NCBI GenBank assembly: GCA_008632985.1
Contig: QPGO01000139.1
Coordinates: forward strand, 186,001 to 209,248
From: Psammoneis japonica
Taxonomy: Eukaryota
Length of the DNA stretch: 23,248 bases
Direction of reading: 5' to 3'
Shown: one piece after another, positions 1 to 16,500 of the stretch
Layout of the letters: the number at the start of each line of letters is the position of its first letter
Numbering within the stretch: the first letter of the stretch is position 1
Notes under the pieces: generated by a model
The model's input: the letters and a program-made list of their open reading frames with translations, nothing else
What the model was told of the DNA's origin: nothing
Database searches by the model: none
Translations under genes and position numbers: made by a program

Positions 1-128
1 AACCATCTTGAGTTTGAGAAGCAAGCAGCTGCTGCTTGAAGCAATGCTCTGGCTTTTTTTGCTGCTCCTGTTCACTGCTTGATGTGGAGCAAGATGTTGT
101 GCTCAACAAGCCAGTGCCCAGTCATTGC

Positions 129-393
129 TGTTGGAGTTTCACAGCTTGCCAGCTGGCACACGTTTGGTCTCACTGACTCCAAACTCACTGAGCAGCTCAC
201 AAACACATTCATGTTGCTGTCCACTGCTGTTGCCATGTTGACCGGGTGCAGAAGCTAAAAAGTCAGCACAAGGCCAGCAACCCAAACTGAGTTGCAAATG
301 CAAATTCAACAAGTCATCCACAATCACCAGTGTGTCTCACACTGCAACTTTGTCTTTCTGCCTGTCCTGCAAAAACCACCTCTGGCCCTGATG
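129..393. repeat. LTR-like repeat, left copy (lacks the last 8 bp of the right copy)
   Basis: Starts TGTTGGAG and aligns colinearly with 9640-9900 (first 30 nt identical, one 4-nt indel). Preceded by ATTGC at 124-128. Confidence 0.85.
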
Positions 394-699
394 CGAGAGC
401 GACACTTGGAGACCATGCCACCCAACACCACTTTGACTGCTCTGCTTGCTCCTGTGACCCACATCATCCAACTCTGCCAACAAATGGCCTGCTGTCTGGA
501 CAATTCTTCCTCACATGCCCAACCTTGCTGCATTTCCAGCATTTGGTCTGCTTCCTCTCATTCTGCACAAAGCTTGTGCCCTCACCAGGTTTTCTTGTTG
601 GCCCTGCAGGTGCCCAAAACCTGCAATGCCCCCTCAGCTGATTGGAGCAAATGTCAACCCCACATGCAAGCTGTCAGTGTGGGTCTTTCAAGACATTGT

Positions 700-1400
700 G
701 CCAACATTTCTTGGCACCTTCCATCAGCATCGCTGCTGGCAACTTGCTCTTTTCTTTGTTCTGGGTGTCATCAGCATCCTTGCTGAACCACAACCTTTTT
801 TCTTGGTGATTTTTTCTGGGGGACAACCCTGCCATGGGATGTTTCTGCCATCTCAACAATGCTCGTGAGCTGATTCTGGTGATCTTCAAGTGCCTCCACT
901 TGAAACAAGATTGGCTGGAGAGTTTGGCGCAGCCCTGCCACTCCCCACTCTTCAAGACTCCCCCACAAGCTCCGCCGCCATTTCAATCTTGTGACAAACA
1001 GCCTTTGCACATTGTCCCGCCATTGCATCAAATGCCTTTGCCCTCCACATCTCACAGATTGCACTCTGTTTTGTGCAGCGACTGCATTGCTTGCTCCAGA
1101 TTGCCTTGTCCTTCTCTGATGTGGTGTCTCCCCGTGGATGATCTGGCTCTTCTGGCATGCTCTCCTGCCTCAGAGATGTCATGTTGCCTGCATCTGGGCC
1201 CAAACATTCTTCCGACATGCTCGCCAATCTTCCTCATGGTTTCTGTGCAACCATCTGCCTGTCATCCTGACTCAGCAATGGCTTCACACACCCGCTCCCT
1301 TAAATCTTTCTTGCTTCCGAACTCAGCTGTGTCCTTGCCTGCATTTTCCAGGACTTGTGTTGGAGCATCACCGCTCACCGACAGCCACACGTGGGGCACT
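700..1400 (-). pseudogene. Degenerate Ty1/copia-type gag remnant
   Basis: Broken minus-strand frames read ESG*QADGCTETMRKIGEHVGRMFG and AKAFDAMAGQCAKAVCHKIE. These resemble, from memory, the diatom copia Gag motifs 'Y.KT..KI.EYVGR.YG' and 'K.F..I.GQC...MK.K.E'. Boundaries approximate. Confidence 0.45.
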
Positions 1401-1483
1401 GTTGAATGCAGTGACTCCGAAAGGCGATGTGCCATGTTGGTTGTCTTTTTGTTGGGTGCTGCATTGCGCCGCACAAAAAAAAT

Positions 1484-1610
1484 GCACGCATGTCACAGTG
1501 GTGAACAAAGAGTTAAACTACATTAGCAGTTTTCTGCTCGACATTTTTGTTCTCACAGGGAAAAAAGGCGTGCATGTCGCTGTGGTAAACAAACACCTGG
1601 TAAGAGTTAA
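1484..1610. repeat. Short imperfect direct duplication, each copy followed by GAGTTAA
   Basis: gcacgcatgtcacagtggtgaacaaa (1484-1509) vs gcgtgcatgtcgctgtggtaaacaaa (1568-1593). GAGTTAA at 1510-1516 and 1604-1610. Confidence 0.7.
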
Positions 1611-1892
1611 TGGAAAATGCTGGAAGTGACATGCGTGTGCCAAACAGCCCTTCCCACACAATGCGGAGCGGTGTCTCATCCGTTTTGGAATGTTTTCGAT
1701 GAGCACCACAGATGCCATCAATGTGAGTGCCGTCATCACAATGCCGTGCATCCATCGACGCGACCTGCCATGCCGCAGTCTTTGAAGAGTGCGATTGTAA
1801 GGTCACAGTCGGTTAGAAATCATTCCACGAAGAACTCACCAGTCCGACGCAAATCGCACACCGCGAGCATTGTCTTAATTGTCCTTGCCCTC

Positions 1893-4800
1893 CTATGCAC
1901 TGACGGCAGGCCACGCGCTGTCTTCGCCATTCGCGGCATCATCATACTCATGTTCTCTGAACTGCTGAACAATGCCATCAATCTCTTTGTACCTGTTTTG
2001 ATCAGTCAGAAGCAACCGCAGAATCTTGACTTTGTCATCGTTATAGGAGGCGTCTGCATCCAAAACACTTGTGCGCGCACAAGCAAAGCTCTTGGGCCCG
2101 GCCACAAGGGTCTTCGACGGATATTTCTTGAACTCGTTGGCATAGATCACCTCGCATACGCACCAAAGCCGGCGGTAGAGGTCGACTTTTGAATTTCGCA
2201 AAACAAGGAATTCCTCCGCTTTTTTCAGCGCCTTGACAAACGGCGAATCGTCGAGTGAGACGTTCAATTGGTTTCCAACGGTGCCCTCGTCACCTTGTAA
2301 AAGGGCAAAGGAGCAAATCCAGAGATTTGGCTTCGTCGTCCTTTCGAGAAACGTTCTACGAATGGAGTCAACGAAAACACAAAACTCTTCATCCCAGGCG
2401 TGTGTAACAAAAACGTCTACCATTCGCCCCTGGGGATTCAAGTGAAGAGCGTACGATGTTCCTTTCTCATTGCAGACAGGTGTGACAATGTCTTTCACAA
2501 CATCTCTCATGGTCTTTTCGTGGTATCTGGCTCCGTACTTCTGCTTAGCCTTGTCGTGCAACGCCATTAGCTGCTTATACGCTATTGACCACATTTCAGG
2601 GCACTTTTGTAATTTTTCGTTGGTATCGGATCGGTGTGCTGTTGCAATGCTGGAGTTGATATCCCGAGAATACCCATCGCTGTCTTCCGCTTGATCTGAT
2701 TCATCATCTTCTAGGAGCCTTTCTTTCAATTTCCTTAGCGATAGTTTCGGGGGTAGACTAGAAAGCCGCAACAAACAGTCGCATGCACTTGAATCAGTGC
2801 CTTGAGCTTTCATGATATAGTAGTCTCCGTTCAAGCTTATTTCGTAGGCCGTTCCCATGCCTAACCAACAGCTTCTCTGCGATGACTTTACATTCAAGTT
2901 GATGGCAATTAGAGTGCTGCTTGTCTCCAAGTAATTCACGCGGCAAATTAGCTTATCTTCCATTGCATCGGCAAGCCTCTTTATCTCCGTAACGGATACG
3001 ATGCGGGCAACTCTTGGGTCTTCGTCTGATACGAACTTTGTCAACTCGTCTGCAGCAACGTGGGCATCCCGTCCAGTCACCTTCTTCTCAATCGTCGAAA
3101 AGAGCTGTTCAACGTAGTGTCCAACGAACTGAAACGACGAGCTTGTTGGTGTGCTTGTCAAAACCTTCTCTTTTTGCCCACCACCGTGGAGATGTAGCAC
3201 TAAGGTTACTTCATCATCGGATTGTAAATCATAGTTGGAAAACGACATCCAGTCCAAAAGCTCTGAATCGCCCTTGCACAGATGTTGATGCTCAGTGGGA
3301 ATCCGCAGTTGTCTCTCGATTTGTTTTTTCAGAGCAATAACTGGATCCAACGGTCTCAGTCGGAATCGCGTGGTCGTGCTATCCATCATTGTCCTTACTA
3401 CTATATCAATTGGGGGTAACTGTTCCGAATCTATTGCAAGATTTCTGTTTTAAACAAGACAAAGAAGGACGTACGAAACGATGAGCCCCTATCAGTCGTG
3501 CAAGCCCCGCAGAAGCTACTACACCGACAACAACGACCGTATCACATATGCTTGCACTTACACCAAGTTTAGCAAGTTGTCCAGTTCTCGTTCCTTGCCA
3601 TTCTGAATGACGCGGATGCCACCTTCCTTTATTCCACTCTCTGCCACAACAACATTGTTAGAAAGAGATTCGCCCCTACACGAAAGCTGCTGTTGATCCG
3701 TAGGAATTCCCACCAAGTCAAAAACTTCTTTTTTCACATCATGTATTGTGCTTGAATATTTTACACGATCAACCACAATGATATGGTTCGTGCCCTCCAT
3801 GACTACCACCGAGAATTCTGTTTCAGTGAATTCCGAGGTGTGTATACCTCGCATCTGTCTTCTTGTGCTATCTGACACTAAATTCTTGTCCCGATCGATG
3901 TCATCTGGCAAAAGATACTCAAAATTGCTGAGAGATTTTGTAGCTGGTGGTGGTCCAGGCTCGCAGACAGCACCCGGCAGTATCGATGCATCTCTGACTA
4001 AGAGTGGTCTCGTCGACGAAGCGCTCGATGATGGACTGGCTGAAGCAACACCGCCTACATCGGTATGACTTTTTAAGCTGTCCAACACTTGGTTCGCACG
4101 CTCAGCGCATCGATCGGGAAATCTGTTTGCGGCTAGTGTCATCAGAGTGAGCAGCTCTGACGTGCTCTTTCGAATCAGCACGGCATTGTCAGCAGAGAGC
4201 AAAAAGTTTCTCATCGCAACGCAAGCGTGTTCTTGAAGCTTCCAAGAGTCAGGGAAACGTCGCATCGCAGATATTATTGCACTTATTTCACCTTCGGTAG
4301 CAATCATCACTTCGTTGGTGTGGACGTTCACAGCTAAGCTGGATAACGCTCGACATGCTTCAACCTGCAACACCTCTGAATCGTAGTGGGACCACATTGC
4401 GAAAACAATAGCATCCACCCCTCCCGCATCCCGAATTAAGTTCTTGTTACGAGAATTTGAAGAAAGCGTGCATAAACACCCACAGGCCTGCTTTTGAACC
4501 ATTTCGTAGTTGATGTTTGCCATCATTCCGTTCACTACAAGTCCAATTCCGCCTGCGTCCGCGATGACAACTTGGTTTTGCTCCAACACGGCCAGGCTCC
4601 ACAAGGTAGTGAACGCCCTCTCGAGCACGGTCGGAGCTCCCATGAATTCCTTCATTGACGCTGTCACCGCATGGATACCCCCAACTTGAGCTATTTCTCT
4701 CTTCGCGGCCGAATTTCTCATCGCGACATTCTGCAAAACTCCAAGTCCCTTCTCTTGAAATCCTTGAGCGTCTGGGTGATACCTCATAAGGTCCACAACG

Positions 4801-7800
4801 GTCTGCACAGTACTCGTGTCAGCTATAGCTTGCTCCTCTATGTCGGATGAAAGATTCAAAAGAGCAGCGCAAGCTCCTTCAATGAGCTCAACATTGTCTC
4901 TGTTCCTTGGTGTTTTCATGGCATTTACAACCAAAATGAGTCCTCCCTGTGACGAAATCAGCATCCTGGACTCGTGGTCGACGCTTAAATGCGACAAAGC
5001 CTTACATGCATCCATTTGAATGCGGTCGTTCTCGGTGAAAACCGCCAAAGCGCTAACAAGCATATCGATTCCATCAGTCTCGGCTATACAAAGATTGACC
5101 TGGAGATTCTCAGTCGAAGAAAGAACAGCGAGAATGGAACAACCCCTTTCTTGGATACCTTCTGACGATTCGTGCTCGACCATCGTGTCAATTACTACCA
5201 CTATGCCTCCACATTGAATAACCATGCCTTCGTCGATCAACGATAAGTTGAATATCACATCCATAGCCTTCTCTTTCAACTCGATTCGATCCCGGTCGTG
5301 CTCCAGTATCATATATATTATAGCAATGACGGCGTCGACATCAGAGTTATCGAGCTGGTATGAGTGTTCTCGCATGGCCGTTGTGATGGAGACAAGTGCC
5401 CGCATTCCCTCAAATTGCAAATCTGTCTCCCCTCGGTACAGAGACATGGCGCCAACAATTGACTTGAACATCTTCTCCAACAAAGACGACGACTGCTTCT
5501 GCTGCTTGGCTACTAAAGCCCATAAAACGCCAAACGCCTCCAGCCTTAAAGACACCTCCTCAGAGCGCTGGTCGATTATTGCCGTAACAGCGTTAACTAG
5601 CACCTCACCCTTCATGGCATTGGAGCTCGGCTTGGAACCAAGCAACAGATTTCTAAGTACCTTGCAGGAAAGTTTCCGTGAGGCTTCGGATTCCAGTTTC
5701 GTCTCCATCGCATCTACTATTGCATTGACGCACTCTGGAGGTAATATCGCAGGCTTCCCGCTGTCGGCTACCGCTAGGACAGAAATAAGCTCCATTGCTC
5801 GGCATGCGGAGGGCTCCGATTCAGACTCCTGCAGGATCTCAGTGGCAGCATCAAGACAACTACATGCCACTAGAGCCTGCCTGTTCCTTTCAGACGACGT
5901 CGCAATCGCACAAAGCGCAGAACACAACCCCACCCGACCAACTGGGCCGCTGTTGAGCGCTGCATCGACGAGATCCTCCATAAGCTCAGAATCCATTGAT
6001 CTTGACGGAGATTGAATAGAAAGGTATGCAAGCGCACGGCTAGCTTCTTCGCAAACTGAAGGGTCAGGCAGGTCCAACGACAATGCCCGAATCGGAATCT
6101 CCGATGGTAGATCAGATACTTCTGTGATCTGCGCAACAGCAACGTTCGCAACGAAGGCGCAAGCTGCGGCTTGCAGCGGAGCCGAATCTAAGTGGTGGTT
6201 AGTACCGAGAATCAGCGCCTGAAAAGCATCCGGCAGGCATTCTTGTAGAACGGGCGGCACAGCAGCAGAGAAAGCCCAAAGGAGGTGACTTCCAGCTTCC
6301 ATGATCCCCCTGTTGGCCGGAAATTTCACCATTGCGCTCACCACGGCTTGGATTCCGTGGGCTTCGTTGATACATATCTTGCAATCCTTTCCGACGGCGG
6401 CCATCGTTGAAAGGAATCCACAACACGCTTCTTGCAAAGATTCGATTTCGTCGTTAGGTTCTAATACCATAATGCGTGCCGTCGCGAAGATACCCTCTGT
6501 CGCACTTTTTGTCGCGATGTTGTCATTCCTTATCCCCAGAAGCTCACATAAAAGTGACACAGTCATTTCAAACAATCCAGGAGTCGTAGACGGTGCCTTC
6601 ATCAGATCTGTACACATAACAACTCCGTCTTCATCCTTGATCTTTTTCAAAACTTTCTTTGTTGCATCACTGTCTTCCTGGTCAAGCAAACGCCATAGTA
6701 GTTTCATTGCCCACTCTTCCACAAAAGGCTCCTTTTTTACATTTTTCATCGCCTTTGTAACAGATGAGACGACTTTAGCATCGATAGCAGCAGCAATGTT
6801 GCTTCGTATCACTCCCTTCCCTTTTTCAAGATATTCAGGGTCTTCGTCTGAAAAGTGAACAAGGCTATGCATCGAACGACACGCCCACTCCAACACCACG
6901 CCAGAACTTGCATTAACGGTCAAGATCCTGGCAATGGCTTCAATTCCCCTTGCTCCAGCGATCGCCTCCATGTCCTCGGGGAAACTAGCAAGGCACGCAA
7001 GTAAGCCCAATGCCCAGGGCATATAATCAATCTCTTTCTGCATTCGGGAATTTCGAAGGGACTCGACAACGATCTGGGCGACCCTTGTTTCACTTGCCAC
7101 GGACATGCTCTCGTCGCTAACAGCTACTAATGCCCACATTGCACCGCATGCTGCAGCCATCACTCTGGCATCCGCCACGTACGTGCCCATGAGGTCTCTA
7201 ATATCATACACCGCTTGGTTCTGTTCGTCCGGCGACGGCGTTTCTTGCAAAGTTGGCCCGAAATTTCTCAGCTTGTGCAACTTGCGTCGCACCAGAATCG
7301 CATCGCCTTTTATTCTGGGGTCACGGAGATCCGCAAAGATCTCCGACGTGCTTTCTTCCGTCCTGCCGCCGGTGTAATCCTCTTCTGCAACCCTGAGCGG
7401 AGGTTGTTTCGGCTGGATATGCCGCGAAGACGTACCTGATTTAAACATTTTTGAAGATTCAGGAGCGGGTCTATGGGATGATTCTGAGGCTGAACGATGA
7501 AGAATAAGTTCTGAGGCTGATCGGCGTTGGCGACCGTGTTCGGAAGCTGGTCGAAGATGACTGTGAGAAGAATCTCCGAAGTGTCGGTTAGAAGCATCGG
7601 ACACGTGTCGGTGTGATGATTCTGGTTTGTGTCTACTGGATGGATCCTGCACGTGTCTCCTGGACGAGGACGACACGTAGTCGGAGTACCAGTTAAATGA
7701 TGAATCTGCCATGTGTCGATGGGAAGGATCTGCGATGTCTCGTGTTGATCTTGGCCGGTGGCGCCGTGCACTATCACGTGAAGTAGAGCCTCCACGTCTA

Positions 7801-8090
7801 TCATCACGCGGAAAAGCTTGCATGTATTGGGTGTGAATGTGGGCCGGTACCGTATCAGCGTTGCAGCGAATGCAAGTGCCGTTGTAAACGTGATCGTTGC
7901 TGAGCGGTTTCATCTTCAAATACTTTTTCTCATGAGTCTTGACACCGCACCGAAGACACACTCCTCTCCTCTTTGCTATACTTTCACGTTCTGCTTGGCT
8001 GAGGGCTGTTCCGTGCTTGTCGAAATACGGAATAGCGTTGCTGTTCTGGATATTGTTGAGTTCATCGTATGGATTAGGTAGACCGGACAT
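1893..8090 (-). CDS. 2026-aa multidomain protein: N-terminal CxxC motif pair, armadillo repeats, two ubiquitin-like domains, C-terminal HET/TIR-like domain
   Basis: Exons 8090-3562 and 3444-1893. A 117-bp phase-2 intron (3561-3445, GTAAGT...TTTTAAAACAG) joins the 1510-aa and 498-aa ORFs in frame (..NLV-NLAIDSEQLPPIDIVVRT-MMDS..). Motifs: CLRCGVKTH..GTCIRC; many ARM units (e.g. GGIHAVTASMKEF, VQKQACGCLCTL); Ubl1 IHDVKKEVFDLVGIPTDQQQL; Ubl2 LKKQIERQLRIPTEHQHL..LVLHLHGGG; then FVTHAW, LWICSFALLQ, SPF, RRLWCVCE. Confidence 0.88.
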
Positions 8091-8340
8091 TCTGAAGATT
8101 GAAAGCGATTCGATTCGTTAAGAAGCCAACTCTCAGGCTGTGTGCCAACCGAAGCTTAAAAGCCTGCTCTGCTTCACCAAAATCCCATCGGTTCGAACAC
8201 ACTCAAAAAGTTGGAAATCATGTGCGGATTTTGTTTGGGCTCCTCCTGTGCGTACCGTGTATCATAGGGCTAGGGTACCGGTAGCCAATTGGTATGAGTT
8301 GTTCTGACCTTCTTCCGTCGCACCTCCCGTCCCGCGCCGC

Positions 8341-8348
8341 GCGCGAAA
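8341..8348 (-). promoter_or_regulatory. Possible E2F-type site upstream of the ARM gene
   Basis: TTTCGCGC on the minus strand (fits TTTSSCGC), in a CG-rich patch about 250 bp upstream of ATG 8090. Short motif, could be chance. Confidence 0.25.
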
Positions 8349-8699
8349 TCCATGACGTTGGACGCTGTTGATCTGCTCTGTACGTTGTGCACATGTTGCA
8401 GCCTTAGAGTTGCACTGGCTAGTCTTTTTAATCAATGCACTGCTGTTGAGGATGTCACTCGCTGATGGATGGAATTGTTTCTTTGCGAATCAGTCGTCGA
8501 ACGAGAACTCCTGTCGCGAGCTCGATGACTGTTCTCGTCATCCATTTCAGTGCAACTCAAATGAGACATGGCATTTCCAGGTGTGCATGCCAAGCAACCA
8601 GTGACCCTGTCTTGCTGCACAACTGCATGGAAATTGGCAGATCAAGATTGTAGCTGGCAGATTCGTTCCGCGCACTTCTCGTTGACGTGGGTTGTGACG

Positions 8700-9480
8700 T
8701 GCGTGCGCCCCACGCTGCTGCAGGTGAACCCCGGAAAACTTCTTTGAGATCATTGAGATCAGTGCTCCAACCTGAAACAGCATCAAGAATGTCACCTCAA
8801 TGGAAGACATCAAAAACATCACCCCTCTGGCTTGGTCAGGATCTGCAAACAAGGCCAAGCTCCATTGCGTCACCAGGCTTCCCCTGTTGTTGCTCGTCAG
8901 CAGATTCCACAAAGAAGACAACCAGCGGTTTTGGCAACCTCATTGATCACAGCATTCATGCCCACCTTCAATGACTGTGACCAAGTGCATGATGGAGACA
9001 AGAGCTGCAAGAAGGCACCACTTTTCTGTGGGCTGTGTGGCTCATGAGAAGATGCCTGCTTTTGCTCAAAGCACACCACTTCAAACGAGGTGGTTGTTCT
9101 CCAACAGCTCACTGACCTCCTTGACAAGCACGTTGTTTCCACCAGTGCAAAAACCAAACCCCCAAGGTCCAGCTTCAGATGCCTCAATGCAAGGTGTCAC
9201 TTCCAGTGTTGCCAAACTCACGACCCACCTCCTGCTGTCGTCTGATCACTCTGACTGCAATGATCGACTTCAGAGCAAATCGAACAACTTCAAGAAGCTG
9301 GCTCTCAAAGCACAACAGATGATTCTGTTTGGATCTTCAGTTGATGGAGACACCAGCCCCAATGGCACTCAACAATGACATCTTGCAATGTGAGGATGGA
9401 CTGGGGCCCTTCAGAACTCCACAACCCTCTCCAACACAGCCAACAAGGCCCTCCAGAGATTGTTTTTTTTTTTTCACCCT
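8700..9480 (+). pseudogene. Degenerate transposon-like ORF remnant (possibly ORF1 of a DIRS/Ngaro-type element)
   Basis: Tyr-free, frameshifted segment containing FKKLALKAQQMILFGSSVDGDTSP, which loosely resembles diatom retroelement ORF1 sequences as I remember them. Family assignment is weak. Confidence 0.3.
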
Positions 9481-9534
9481 CGTCCAGCCGGGCAGCTTGT
9501 TTGCCACAATCCACTGACATGAGATGTGCCTTTG

Positions 9535-9596
9535 GATTCCTGTTGACTTTCCAGCCTTTGACTGTAGATCCCTGTTGACTTTCTAGCCTTTGAATG
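9535..9596. repeat. 32-bp tandem duplication
   Basis: gattcctgttgactttccagcctttgactgta followed by gatccctgttgactttctagcctttgaatg. Confidence 0.9.
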
Positions 9597-9639
9597 ACGC
9601 CACTCCTTTGAGTGTCATGCCGTCACTTTTTGGCTTCTG

Positions 9640-9908
9640 TGTTGGAGTTTCACAGCTTGCCAGCTGGCATGCATTTAGTCTCACCAACTCTGAGCTCACC
9701 AAGTGGCTCACAAACATGCTCCCATTGCTGTTAACCACCATCACCATGTCAGCCGGGTGCAGAAGCTAAAAAGTGAGCACAGGACCTGCAACCCAAACTG
9801 AGTTGCAAACACAAATTCACCATGTCATCCACCATTGTCAGTGCATCTTACACTGCAACTTTGTCTGTCTGTCCTGTGAAAACTGCCTCTGACCCCAATG
9901 TTCCAACA
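9640..9908. repeat. LTR-like repeat, right copy (269 bp, complete termini)
   Basis: TGTTGGAG...TTCCAACA, i.e. TG..CA with a 7-bp terminal inverted repeat typical of copia LTRs. Followed by ATTGC. Confidence 0.85.
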
Positions 9909-10014
9909 ATTGCATCTCAGCAGGTGCAAACAACACATTGCAGTTTTTGCATGGGGGGTGCATGCCAAGTTGGGGGGGTCTCAATTGGTGCAGTGCCACT
10001 CTTTCACAGACAAG

Positions 10015-10620
10015 AAAGGAGCCCCAGTTGTTGTGACATCAGATGTGACCCAATGTGGAGGAATTCTCCCTGATGCTTGAATGTGATGCTTGGTTGTGGC
10101 AATGGCACACAATGCAAAAAAGCTGGGTGGTGCCCCCTCTGCTGTGTGTGCTGCTTTTGCCACACAGGTGTGGAGACAAAGCAAATTTTGGAATGTGACC
10201 ACAAGGAACATGATGTGCTGGAGTCTTTGCAAGTTGTGTCCAGTGCATTGCTGCATGTGTGAAGGATGCACATCAAACTTGAGGGATTTTTCAGTGGCTG
10301 GCACTTCTTGTTGAAGAACATCTTTTTTGAGGAGCAGCACAGGGCTGTCAAAGGAGCAGCCCCCCCAGTGGTGACATCAGAAACTGTCCACCATGGTAAA
10401 ACACCCCTGTTGTTCATTCAAATGATCCAGAGATGCCAGGACATGCCAATGACAGACATGCAATGCAAAGCCAGATGCCCACAGGTGGCGCCCCATCTGC
10501 TGTGCATGATGCTGCCTTTGCCACAGGTGCAATGAAACAAATGTCCTGAATGGCCACAGCATCATTTTGAGCTTGAACTTGCACAACCACAATCCTTTTT
10601 GTCTTGGCATCATTGCAGCA
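10015..10620 (-). pseudogene. Decayed unknown ORF with two internal repeats of about 340-360 bp
   Basis: Minus-strand fragments VAKAASCTADGAPP..RGVLPWWTVSDVTTGGAAP and VAKAAHTAEGAPP..GRIPPHWVTSDVTTTGAP. Shared DNA core gtgacatcaga at 10033 and 10371. Confidence 0.5.
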
Positions 10621-11125
10621 AAAAGTCTCAGGACATGCCAGTTTGCACAGGTGTGCAGCAAGCACTGCAATGCCAAAGATTGGCAAAACTGCCAAGGGGC
10701 ATGCAACACGGCAGATTGGAAGCATTGCATGAATTTGCTGTGTGCTTGAGACCATGCTCATCATCTCCAGAGGGCTGTGCAAATTAGATGTCTTTTCTTC
10801 GCCCAGGGAAACATGGTGGAATGGTGTGCGCACTCCAAAAAAGCATTCTTTACGAAGCGAACCTAGACTTTGACAAGCGTGTCTTACAATCCAGTCTGTT
10901 TCAGGTGCTGTAGCGCATGTTTATCCGACTATTTCATACGTTGTAGCTTTGTAGCTAAGATTACCACTGTTGCACTTTCTCTCTCTCTCGATCGAAAAGT
11001 AAGGTGCGTGTGCACGCGAGAAGAAGCTAGGGCCCTGCACTACTGAGGTTCTTCACGAGGTTTTGGAGCGGAACAAAACCCTGAAATATGTTTCAGTTAC
11101 GTGCAAGTTGAACACAATCGCTATG

Positions 11126-13599: not shown

Positions 13600-16500
13600 T
13601 TAAGAAGAAGTGGCTTCACAGAACTTCCTTGCGTTCTGGAACATCTGTAACCAAGGACCAGCCGCAAGGTCCTTCCATTCCGGTGGAGTCCACGGCCACT
13701 GCCAGGTCGTAAAGACACGCTCCGGATGAGGCATCATGGCCAAATGCCGTCCATCCTTGGAACAAAGAGCGGCAATACCGTCGGGACTGCCATTGGGATT
13801 GAAGGGATACTCCTCCGTCACTTCGTTTGTATCATTGACGTATCGCAAGGGTACTTGGTTTTCCTTGCGCACGGAATCGTAGACAGACTCGTCTGGAAAG
13901 TGGAAGCGGCCTTCACCGTGTGCCACCCAAATACCAAGAGACGAACCCTCCATCCCCTAAAGGTACGACCAAGCAAGCAACTCATGAGAAACCAAGCAGA
14001 AACGAATATAATATATCGAAAACACAACGGAACTTACCGAGAACATAATGGCAGGGCTCTCCTGAATCTGAACACTGGAGAAGCGGCTTTCGAACTTGCC
14101 ACTGTCATTCTCGAGCAATCTAGGCTGCTTGTCCTCGGGTAGACCTGCACTATCCGGGATCCATCCGAGCAGCGCCATGAGCTGGCATCCATTGCATACC
14201 CCCAAACTAAAGGTATCCGACCTCTGCCGGAAGGCTTCGAATTGCTTGTACACATTCTCGTTGAATTTGATCACTCCAGCCCATCCCTTGCCACTGTCAA
14301 GAACATCGGCAAACGAGAAGCCTCCAACAAAGACGATACCACGGAAGATATCCAGGGTGACCTTGCCACTGACAAGATCACTGACTGCTACATCCCACGC
14401 CTCAAAACCGGCAGACAAAAAGGCAGAGATCATTTCTCGGTCTCCATTGCTGCCTTCTTGACGAATCACGGCAACCTTGTACTTGTCTTGCTGCTTCATG
14501 ACGGCTTCCTCGGTTGGCGCGGGGGTGTATGTCAATTTCCACTGCGGTGCTTGGCGAGACTTGAGCCCCGCTTCTTCTTGTGCCACGCAAACCGGATTTC
14601 TCTGGCGCTTTTCAAGGTGAAAGCTGGTTGCCTCCCAAACATCGCGAAGAACAGTCATTTTGTCATTAATGCTTGGCGCACCGTCACCCACAGCAATCTT
14701 GATAAAGTCTCCAGCGCTGACGCTTCCAATCTCTTCGCAGGGAACACCGGCAGCAGTGTACTTGGCAACGACAGAAGCAACATTAGAACCCGCAACTTCA
14801 AGAACCAATCCAGCTTCCTCGTTGAAGAGAGTACCGACATATCCGACTCCCGCCGAGTCTGGCACCTTGACGTCAATGGAACAGTTTCCGGCAAACGCCA
14901 TTTCCATCAAAGTCACTGCGAGTCCACCATCGGATCGATCGTGTCCGGCAAGAATGGTACGCTCGTCAATCAACTCTTGCGTCACGATAAAAGCACTCTT
15001 GAGTACCGCAAAGTCTTCGATATCGGGGCTGTCGTTTCCAATCTGACTGTACACCTGCGCAAGCGACGATCCTCCGAGACGTGCCTTGCCCTTGCACAAG
15101 TCGACAAAGAGTAGCTTGGAGTCACCGGGACACTTGAGGTCTGGAGTGACAGTCTTGGTAATGTCTGGACACGTCACATAGCACGTCATGGTGAGTTCAC
15201 CGGGAGCCTTGACAACCTCTTCACCACAACGCGCCGCCATGGAGAGTGAGTCCTTGCCTCCGTCAATACCACATCCAAGCGCCAGGAATGAATCACGCAG
15301 TGCCTGACACGCATCGTACATTTTGGCTCCCTCCCCGGGCAGCTTGGCGGCATACATCCAGTTGCCACTGGCCTTGATATCTTCAATTTTCGAAATCTTG
15401 GCCCATACGAGATTTGTCATGGACTCGGCAACCGTCATGCGGGCCATTGCCGCAGAATCAATGAGACCCTTGATGGGCTGTTCGCCACAAGCGACGGCCG
15501 TTCCCGTAATGCCAAAGTGTGTATGAGCCGTGACACCGAGATTGGCAAGGGGAGTTGGAGAGGACCGACGCATGGCTGCTGAGCCACAAGACCGTCACGG
15601 AGCGATCAACCTGACAAGACGACAAGTGTAGAACAAGAGGTAAGTCAAGATATGGTAAAGCAACACACTTCTATCCGACAAGGTTCTTTTTTCTCACCTT
15701 GTGCACAAGAAAGCGCTTGGACCCGACCGACAAGAGTCGAAGCACACGGTCCACCGCATCCGACACGGTGGTTCCTTCGGGTAGAACAAGCGGTTTCAAG
15801 TCCATGGTCTGATGGTCATCCACAAAGGTCTTTTGAGGCATTTTACCAAGAACAAGTTCCAGGGGCAGGTCCACCGGAGTGCTCCCATCCTCAGAATCGT
15901 GCACCACCACCTTTCCATCTCCCGTCACGGCGCCCAAGATGCGAATGGGACAATTCTCACGCTCGGCAATCTCTTTGAATACCGCTTCGTCGGACGGACG
16001 AATGAGAAGCGCATTGTTTTCCTGGTATTCAGCTCCCCAAATTTCCAGTACTGACAAGGTGTTGTCACCAAGATAGACCTTGAAATAGTTTTAAGTAGGA
16101 ACGAGTTGAAGTTGTTGTTTAGAATCGGATACGTATCCTCGAGCATGCACCACAACAACAAACTGCAACACAAAAAACAAACAACTCACCTTTCGGATAT
16201 CATACGACGCCCCCGCTGGTTCGACAATTTCCTTCAACACGTTACCGTTTCCACCGGCACCCTGATCGTGTACGGAAACAATTGGATTCTTATCTCCCAA
16301 ATCACAACACGCCCGCATGAGACGGTTCATGCGGTTTTCCATTTCCGCATCACCCGCTGCACGGCATCAAAGTCCAAATCGGCATTTTCCGAACTCTGTA
16401 CACGAGACGACGCGGCCCCACCACCGATACCAATACGATACGCCGGTCCACCCACCTTGACCACCAACATGTCCTTTTCGGGTTCCCCCTTGGTGGTGTG

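Follow-up and report, generated by a model that had tools for sequence, protein, structure and literature searches.

The window, that is, the whole 23,248-nucleotide stretch analysed here, corresponds to positions 186001–209248 of contig QPGO01000139.1 (C139) of the Psammoneis japonica assembly, and genome-wide searches were run against the 91-Mb assembly. Between PPR-type and HIBCH-like genes, it contains a long terminal repeat (LTR) retroelement whose halves are held apart by an 8-kb insert, which carries a multi-domain gene on the minus strand together with fragments of two other transposons. Donor and family comparisons indicate that this gene is a young multi-donor chimera of an ARM-repeat gene copy, a piece of a second gene (on contig C58), two ubiquitin-like (Ubl) domains and a predicted TIR-fold domain. 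The features are, in window coordinates:

124–128, no strand: target-site duplication, left copy (ATTGC); 5-bp duplications occur in family copies
129–393, minus: putative 3' LTR of the LTR element, which reads on the minus strand; its inner 8 bp, the purine tract and some 50 bp further are missing
394–1392, minus: decayed gag region, CCHC knuckle near 500–545; matches the family internal region and zf-CCHC
1393–1517, no strand: final 125 bp, TTAA included, of a TTAA-flanked miniature inverted-repeat element of 2.2 kb; meets the gag leader in about 3 bases common to both
1561–1617, no strand: second, damaged copy of the same miniature-transposon end, within the 3' untranslated region of the gene
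1893–2621, minus: TIR-fold domain at the C-terminal end of the chimeric gene (stop 1893–1895), predicted from a fold model and structure searches
2622–3444, minus: second Ubl domain (ends ...HGGG; Pfam ubiquitin, E 1e-7) and a 180-aa region without relatives
3445–3561, minus: 117-nt GT-AG intron, skipped by an X2 contig and kept in X1
3562–3870, minus: first Ubl domain (Pfam ubiquitin, E 8e-6); no close donor in the genome
3871–4070, minus: 200-bp in-frame piece from an exon of the C58 gene, 94.5% identical
4071–8187, minus: ARM-repeat gene copy from contig C24, 94.7% identical, starting 97 bp ahead of the ATG (8090) and ending two codons short of the parent's stop
8188–8351, minus: probable promoter stretch, CpG-rich, judged from its position upstream of the ATG
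8352–9438, plus: Ngaro-like retroelement fragment (first repeat without its first 160 bp, ORF1 start, internal jump), 65–77% identical to the C65 element
9441–9639, minus: leader of the LTR element; about 60–75 bp lost at its junction with the insert
9640–9908, minus: putative 5' LTR, complete, TG...CA
9909–9913, no strand: target-site duplication, right copy (ATTGC), identical in contig C288

The LTR element bounding the unit

ATTGC at 124–128 stands directly before TGTTGGAG (129), and TTCCAACA ends at 9908 and is followed by ATTGC, at the positions given in the preliminary description of this stretch; the probability that two random 5-mers match in such decayed DNA is about 0.002. The LTR pair (129–393 and 9640–9900) has the same orientation, as had also been described, and 208 of 261 aligned bases (80%) are identical, with 46 transitions and 7 transversions. 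Both outer LTR ends are intact (TG...CA). The left LTR lacks its inner 8 bp and the adjoining purine-rich tract (about 55 bp lost), so that the earlier notion of an LTR-bounded unit holds for the presence of one element and fails for the completeness of its left end. Mobility of an LTR element requires the inner LTR end and the purine-rich tract; because the left LTR has lost both, the unit cannot move now.

The natural minus-strand frame of 401–1390 encodes a CCHC knuckle (Pfam zf-CCHC, E 4e-4, right at the cut-off), and no pol family was found in the frames scanned against Pfam, in agreement with the gag-like remnant without pol reported before. "Copia" is a presumptive name for the element: that group is recognised by integrase preceding reverse transcriptase-RNase H and by reverse transcriptase phylogeny, and pol is absent from the window copy and from the typical copies examined. 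The strand of gag and the purine-rich tract of sister copies suggest which LTR is 5' and which 3'. Positions 9909–9921, once considered as a decayed primer-binding site for tRNA-Met, lie outside the element: its internal side is left of 9640, and the right flanks differ among copies. The start of the leader (9614–9639) can pair with part of the LTR (9760–9785) at 15 of 16 positions, and 10 of 11 family copies have such complementarity at the same place (10–15 of 16 bases), a pattern as expected of self-priming.

A search with the right LTR (9640–9908) gave 40 scored places out of 224 candidates in the assembly; 20 stretches were fetched around LTR places, and 14 of them had two LTRs. Ten of these copies span 1724–1978 bp, two 2180–2320 bp and two 7.9–9.2 kb, the longest two being enlarged by nested decayed DNA (5.9 kb of it in L078). 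Identity within LTR pairs is 70–86%, and exact 5-bp duplications were present in 7 of the 14. The interior of typical copies, about 1.3–1.4 kb, corresponds to window positions 401–1390 followed by 9441–9639. Among the 16 copies printed (19 examined), the halves resume 57–78 bp apart in ten and 102–309 bp apart in three, and the right part is absent in three. The window copy has the same complementary halves (401–1392 and 9441–9639) on either side of the insert. Because of these complementary halves, the size and the 5-bp duplications, the frame is a single ~1.9-kb gag-only, non-autonomous LTR element that was split open.

Two truncated copies of this family, inserted independently on the two sides of a resident gene and sharing a 5-mer by chance, would fit the abundance of the family and an LTR identity of just 80%. 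However, 80% lies within the family norm, 34 of the 53 differences are TG/CA swaps, and the 5-mer probability multiplied by those for the same strand and for complementary breakpoints amounts to about 1e-4 (an arithmetic estimate); we find this explanation scarcely credible.

The features of the gag-only class are present, namely direct LTRs with TG...CA, the ATTGC duplication (within 4–6 bp) and gag without pol. The element shares with TR-GAG elements, as treated in part of PMC13570524, the TG...CA LTRs, a 5-bp duplication, a gag remnant, no room for pol and many copies; it differs in its diatom-like host, in the decay of all copies examined by TpA/CpG erosion, and in the window copy being split by 8 kb. 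Duplications and recombined elements are recorded for diatom CoDi families in a section of Maumus et al. (PMC2806351).

The chimeric gene

After removal of the 117-nt GT-AG intron, the gene has a spliced frame of 6081 nt, 2026 codons without a stop. The open frame, its sense-strand intron and its normal CG/TA content were as previously described, but the gene is not the "intact cellular-type gene" it had been taken for: it is a chimera whose ARM part differs from its donor by 5%, within an insert that also holds the fragments of two other transposons. The parent gene on C24, which lies between genes that we take to be of SUN and FKBP type, stops two codons past the breakpoint, and no bases are shared at the ARM/C58 joint. 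The probable promoter stretch had no match elsewhere in the genome and did not align with the upstream DNA of the C24 parent. No close donor was found in the genome for either Ubl domain, the 180-aa region or the last 230 residues; the 180-aa region had no homologs in sequence searches and was modelled with a predicted local distance difference test score (pLDDT) of 33. The second Ubl domain ends in a glycine run (window 3170–3200), where, speculatively, a deubiquitinase might free the TIR-fold part.

The ARM gene occurs at two loci, C24 and the window locus with its second contig C288; its parent lies on another contig, which bears on the synteny with HIBCH-like and PFAS genes in relatives that the preliminary description had named as a sign of two separate LTR insertions. 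The LTR-bounded unit was found at one locus only in the assembly (plus C288). Among 83 ARM homologs none carries TIR, Ubl or C58 parts, the C-terminal tail that follows the ARM end has a median length of 0, and an N-terminal cysteine module is shared by 63; on these comparisons the ARM-only form is the ancestral one. Named homologs came from Fragilaria, Cylindrotheca and Nitzschia. The cysteine module resembles modules preceding three TIR-fold paralogs (L066, L067 and L068) and matches 2 of 152 relatives.

Contigs of three short-read runs (X1, X2 and X3), all from one sample, were compared with the window. One X2 contig spans 1527–3444 and 3562–3905, omitting exactly the intron and extending 35 letters past the C58 joint, whereas the intron is present in X1. 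A further X2 contig matches the window's form of 7338–7862 without a difference; this run has loose ends running into both donors as well, and it had no cover over the transposon parts. X3 gave no aligned contig. X2, labelled DNA by guess, is thus presumably RNA, and from it the fusion gene appears to be transcribed and spliced.

Compared with the C24 parent, the gene had a synonymous divergence (dS) of 0.085 and a ratio of nonsynonymous to synonymous divergence (dN/dS) of 0.28 over 1331 codons, falling to 0.16 for the 1080 codons that follow the variable N-terminus (after codon 260). Since a neutral copy beside a constrained parent should give about 0.5 or more, these values indicate that the gene is under purifying selection.

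An assembly artefact joining different loci was also considered. X1 contigs bridge 3871, 8188/8352 and 9441, and C288 repeats the window from 6890 onward at 99.4%; a mis-join, moreover, would not yield complementary halves, a matching duplication and an open frame of 2026 codons. In its favour, none of the contigs listed bridges 1393 or 4070, C288 begins only at 6890, and the assembly has 1-bp indels. We consider an artefact very unlikely. The PFAS frame (window 15005–16352) is broken by 1-bp indels absent from C288, which are probable assembly errors.

The TIR-fold domain and its family

The last domain is predicted to have the TIR alpha/beta fold. A model built from 104 sequences reached a pLDDT of 96; every row listed by Foldseek was a TIR-domain structure (best E 1.5e-3), and a wide structure search returned the SARM1 TIR (Z 7.8, root-mean-square deviation 3.7, 120 residues aligned) and the RPP1 TIR (Z 7.6, 4.2 and 136, respectively), with the related nucleoside deoxyribosyltransferases at Z 6.4. 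Residues H74, Q109, R151, W153 and E157 are invariant, E157 being present in 104 of 104 members. In the model, E157 lies on helix 152–163, after strand 137–141; the catalytic glutamate of TIR domains lies on the helix after the third strand.

No Pfam family was detected for the domain of the window at E up to 1, and neither HET (PF06985) nor a TIR family was among the first 25 of 82 Pfam families listed for the 104 members; nor did the family match solved structures by sequence. It comprises 1222 representatives at E 0.001, and the near clusters in a protein atlas (score 0.96) are unnamed and eukaryotic. The domain has an extra helical N-terminal part of 65 residues.

At least 12 further loci of the domain were found in this genome, spread over many contigs, with paralogs joined, judging by their sequences, to kinase, ankyrin, NACHT-WD40 or ARM regions; relatives in other genomes are fused to LRR, COR, RCC1 and others. 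Decayed transposon DNA lay within 1.5 kb of 11 of 13 TIR-domain loci (the window included; one duplicate locus and ubiquitin-only hits dropped) versus 3 of 25 control ends of open reading frames (Fisher p 2e-5); the controls came from 20 fixed-position stretches and had to have full flanks, which is a possible bias. The paralog tree is mostly without resolution, and the window and C109 copies group with support of just 93/70. Between the Ubl-TIR unit of the window and its nearest paralog, 38 of 57 fourfold sites differ.

SARM1 has the layout ARM-SAM-SAM-TIR. The chimeric protein resembles it in its N-terminal ARM, two small tandem domains and a C-terminal predicted TIR fold with a conserved glutamate; it differs in having Ubl domains instead of SAM and in its recent assembly. 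The likeness, the ARM part included, is one of layout and not membership. By analogy, the protein is most likely a sensor-plus-effector: the ARM part would hold or sense, and the TIR-fold part would use NAD+ enzymatically on clustering, as that of SARM1 does. The ARM domains of SARM1 restrain its TIR according to part of PMC9153377. The NAD+-using role is predicted from the fold and the conserved glutamate.

The family is also comparable with HET/TIR effectors of fungal NOD-like receptors and with algal TIR proteins (sections of PMC4986451 and PMC12489294): an effector is reshuffled among kinase, ankyrin, NACHT-WD40, LRR and ARM partners, with the glutamate conserved. The 65-residue addition and the lack of a HET/TIR family among those 25 set it apart. 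The same sections report that HET domains are TIR-related and present in stramenopiles (PMC4986451) and that TIR genes of a coccolithophore respond to virus (PMC12489294); the checked passage of a diatom genome paper (PMC12803021) does not mention TIR.

Origin of the locus

Neither outer junction of the insert coincides with a natural transposon end; the stretches shared there are about 3 bases (left) and about 6–8 bases (right), and about 60–75 bp of the element leader were replaced. The miniature element at the left is 2.13–2.19 kb long in the five full copies compared, with terminal inverted repeats and piggyBac-like TTAA flanks (on both sides in two copies, on one side in two, variants in one). 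This family is young: L100–L104 are up to 99.6% identical and still keep CG and TA. The Ngaro-like fragment at the right is antisense to the LTR element. Its C65 relative, 6.5 kb long, has split direct repeats A1...B1 A2 B2, the Ngaro layout described in part of PMC8547959; with Ngaro the locus also has in common an isolated A-B repeat in another copy of the LTR family. The window, however, holds just a 1.1-kb fragment, and the recombinase and reverse transcriptase (RT) domains are unrecognisable in the decayed frames: a motif scan of these frames gave nothing clear for either tyrosine recombinase or RT. The copy with the isolated Ngaro terminal repeat (L079, C43:355700–356150) has an intact duplication, and the repeat replaces about 250 bp of its leader, its start coinciding to the base with the left junction of the window, a single case spotted post hoc. 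A search for a mobile subfamily carrying this Ngaro piece found none. Enclosure by a Pack-type DNA transposon was rejected, as no inverted repeat longer than 19 bp was found in 1300–9700 and the two transposon ends lie in the same orientation on a single side.

The transposon DNA at the locus was depleted in TA and CG (TA 0.02–0.2 in the element, the gag region having an observed/expected ratio of 0.02); the gene was normal (CG about 1.0, TA about 0.55). TpA-specific hypermutation of integrated viral DNA in Bigelowiella is reported in 10.64898/2026.01.13.699255. The TG/CA swaps rule out LTR identity as a clock. Between the ARM copy and its parent, 12 of 136 TA were lost and 12 gained, with no directional loss. 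Beside the gene, 10 CG survive in the Ngaro repeat, where three sister copies have TG/CA at 6–8 of these sites; in the gag leader 6 CG survive, and 6 of 8 copies have changes at 4–5 of them. Because the adjoining transposon DNA kept CpGs lost by sister copies, the gene came before this DNA was fully eroded. Transversion distances are alike, with wide error: 7/261 (2.7%) for the LTR pair and 16/615 fourfold sites (2.6%) for the ARM duplication. Given the kept CpGs and these distances, insertion of the element and the gene events may be close in time; the "old element" of the preliminary description is thus perhaps not much older than the gene. The gene presumably escaped erosion through purifying selection.

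The insert is not an mRNA copy, because it keeps the intron, promoter-side DNA, DNA past the end of the transcript contig and an antisense Ngaro piece. We therefore favour, at a probability of about 0.65, assembly of the chimera by DNA-level rearrangements inside a split LTR element, whose LTRs would be a bystander frame and not the vehicle. A gag-only element of ~1.9 kb inserted, as the family comparison shows, and generated the ATTGC duplication; its leader would then have been opened at the DNA level, letting in the Ngaro-like element and a block ending in the miniature DNA transposon. Deletions between short shared stretches may have trimmed the LTR element, the Ngaro-like element and the block, in an order that is itself conjectural. 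In this nest the gene would have been put together in steps, an older unit (Ubl-Ubl-180-aa region-TIR fold) with its intron receiving, in front and in frame, the 200 bp of C58 and nearly the whole C24 ARM gene, probably by break repair or illegitimate recombination. Purifying selection would have retained the fusion gene and so spared it from TpA/CpG erosion. Other family copies were likewise opened by nested DNA (L078 and L079). Arrival at the DNA level with subsequent protection by transcription and selection had already been preferred in the preliminary description, and the spliceable intron, dN/dS below 0.3 and the lack of directional TA loss bear this out.

RNA-level capture would instead have RT switch templates between the RNA of the element and host and transposon RNAs packaged with it, the unit integrating at once, as for Bs1 with several donors. 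Sections of PMC5131818 and PMC13317346 let template switching predict a replaced interior, shared junction bases, sense orientation, several donors and intron loss. At this locus the gene is indeed on the sense strand of the element, part of the interior is replaced with shared stretches at both junctions, several donors are joined in frame, the LTR pair and the ARM duplication have equal transversion ages, and the kept CpGs place the gene early. The spliceable intron, however, is retained; an antisense Ngaro piece, a DNA-transposon end and promoter-side DNA lie inside; the ARM/C58 joint has no shared bases, and at least five switches would be required. Nor was a second copy made by secondary retroposition, which is not obligatory in every case. 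The likeness to Bs1-type retroposition (same sources) thus extends to in-frame sequence of several host genes between element halves, a partly replaced interior and shared junction bases; the intron and flanking non-transcribed DNA, the transposon pieces, one of them antisense, the gene's own promoter and the absence of secondary copies distinguish the locus. We regard capture of this kind as improbable.

Local rearrangement, in which a resident Ubl-TIR gene and flanking transposon pieces were cut and rejoined into a nearby LTR element, with ARM/C58 joined before or after, appears quite improbable as well. In its favour, the Ubl-TIR unit is old and no donor copy of it was found in the assembly, the insert begins and ends within other transposons, and both outer flanks are unique decayed DNA; its difficulty is that the TIR-domain paralogs are dispersed on many contigs.

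Several observations weigh against DNA-level assembly inside the element or the account built on it. Shared junction stretches with 60–75 bp replaced are also a signature of template switching in the relevant part of PMC5131818; the ARM and C58 pieces are sense and in frame, with breakpoints in transcribed DNA and copied stretches that are intronless; the Ubl-Ubl-TIR unit, having no donor found, is possibly local; the transversion clocks do not make the gene younger than the element; and the fold scores are middling (Z below 8, Foldseek E 1.5e-3). In addition, the ARM frame of C288 carries two deletions of 1 bp each. These are likely errors, because such indels also occur in the PFAS gene of the assembly and the window agrees with both runs at 7474, one of the two sites; they may instead mark a broken allele.

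A wider idea is put forward tentatively, as rather doubtful: diatoms may build a sensor-TIR repertoire of immune type by shuffling a hitherto undescribed TIR-fold NADase domain onto copied host genes in transposon nests, this locus being a recent and traceable birth that converges on a SARM1-like layout, with retroelements active through template switching or Ngaro recombinase. None of the titles listed in a literature mostly outside subscription journals reports the same gene, family or event; the process is of a known kind, while the variant and the lineage are new. The locus presents a gene birth with donors, breakpoints, intron and surrounding transposons all still legible, and it warns that capture cannot be called just because a gene sits between two LTRs flanked by a duplication. 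A Pfam-less TIR-fold family swapping partners beside transposon DNA offers a handle on algal immunity, and the gene exemplifies escape from repeat-directed hypermutation in the midst of its target, the protection grading off over a few hundred bases.

The element is bordered on each side by about 900 bp of unique DNA stripped of TA and CG (window 1–123 with C139:185200–186000, and 9914–10800), possibly eroded host DNA or an old repeat. In searches of the genome for an empty site, neither flank taken alone matched anything beyond itself and the second contig. No host repeat emerged from a protein-level search with the right flank or from comparison with fetched loci, nor did scanning metagenomes with the HIBCH-like neighbour bring up a relative. 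An X1 joint of 1261 to 9444 was rejected as an empty allele, one side having only 22 letters, and was read as a sister copy. A 42-bp direct repeat is present at window 10126 and 10484. In the 20 control stretches (L133–L152), 147 of 500 400-bp bins were TA/CG-stripped, about 29% of the sample. A repeat-containing frame at C139:171243–172058 (L032), presumably of helicase-associated type, had partial TA loss within otherwise normal DNA.

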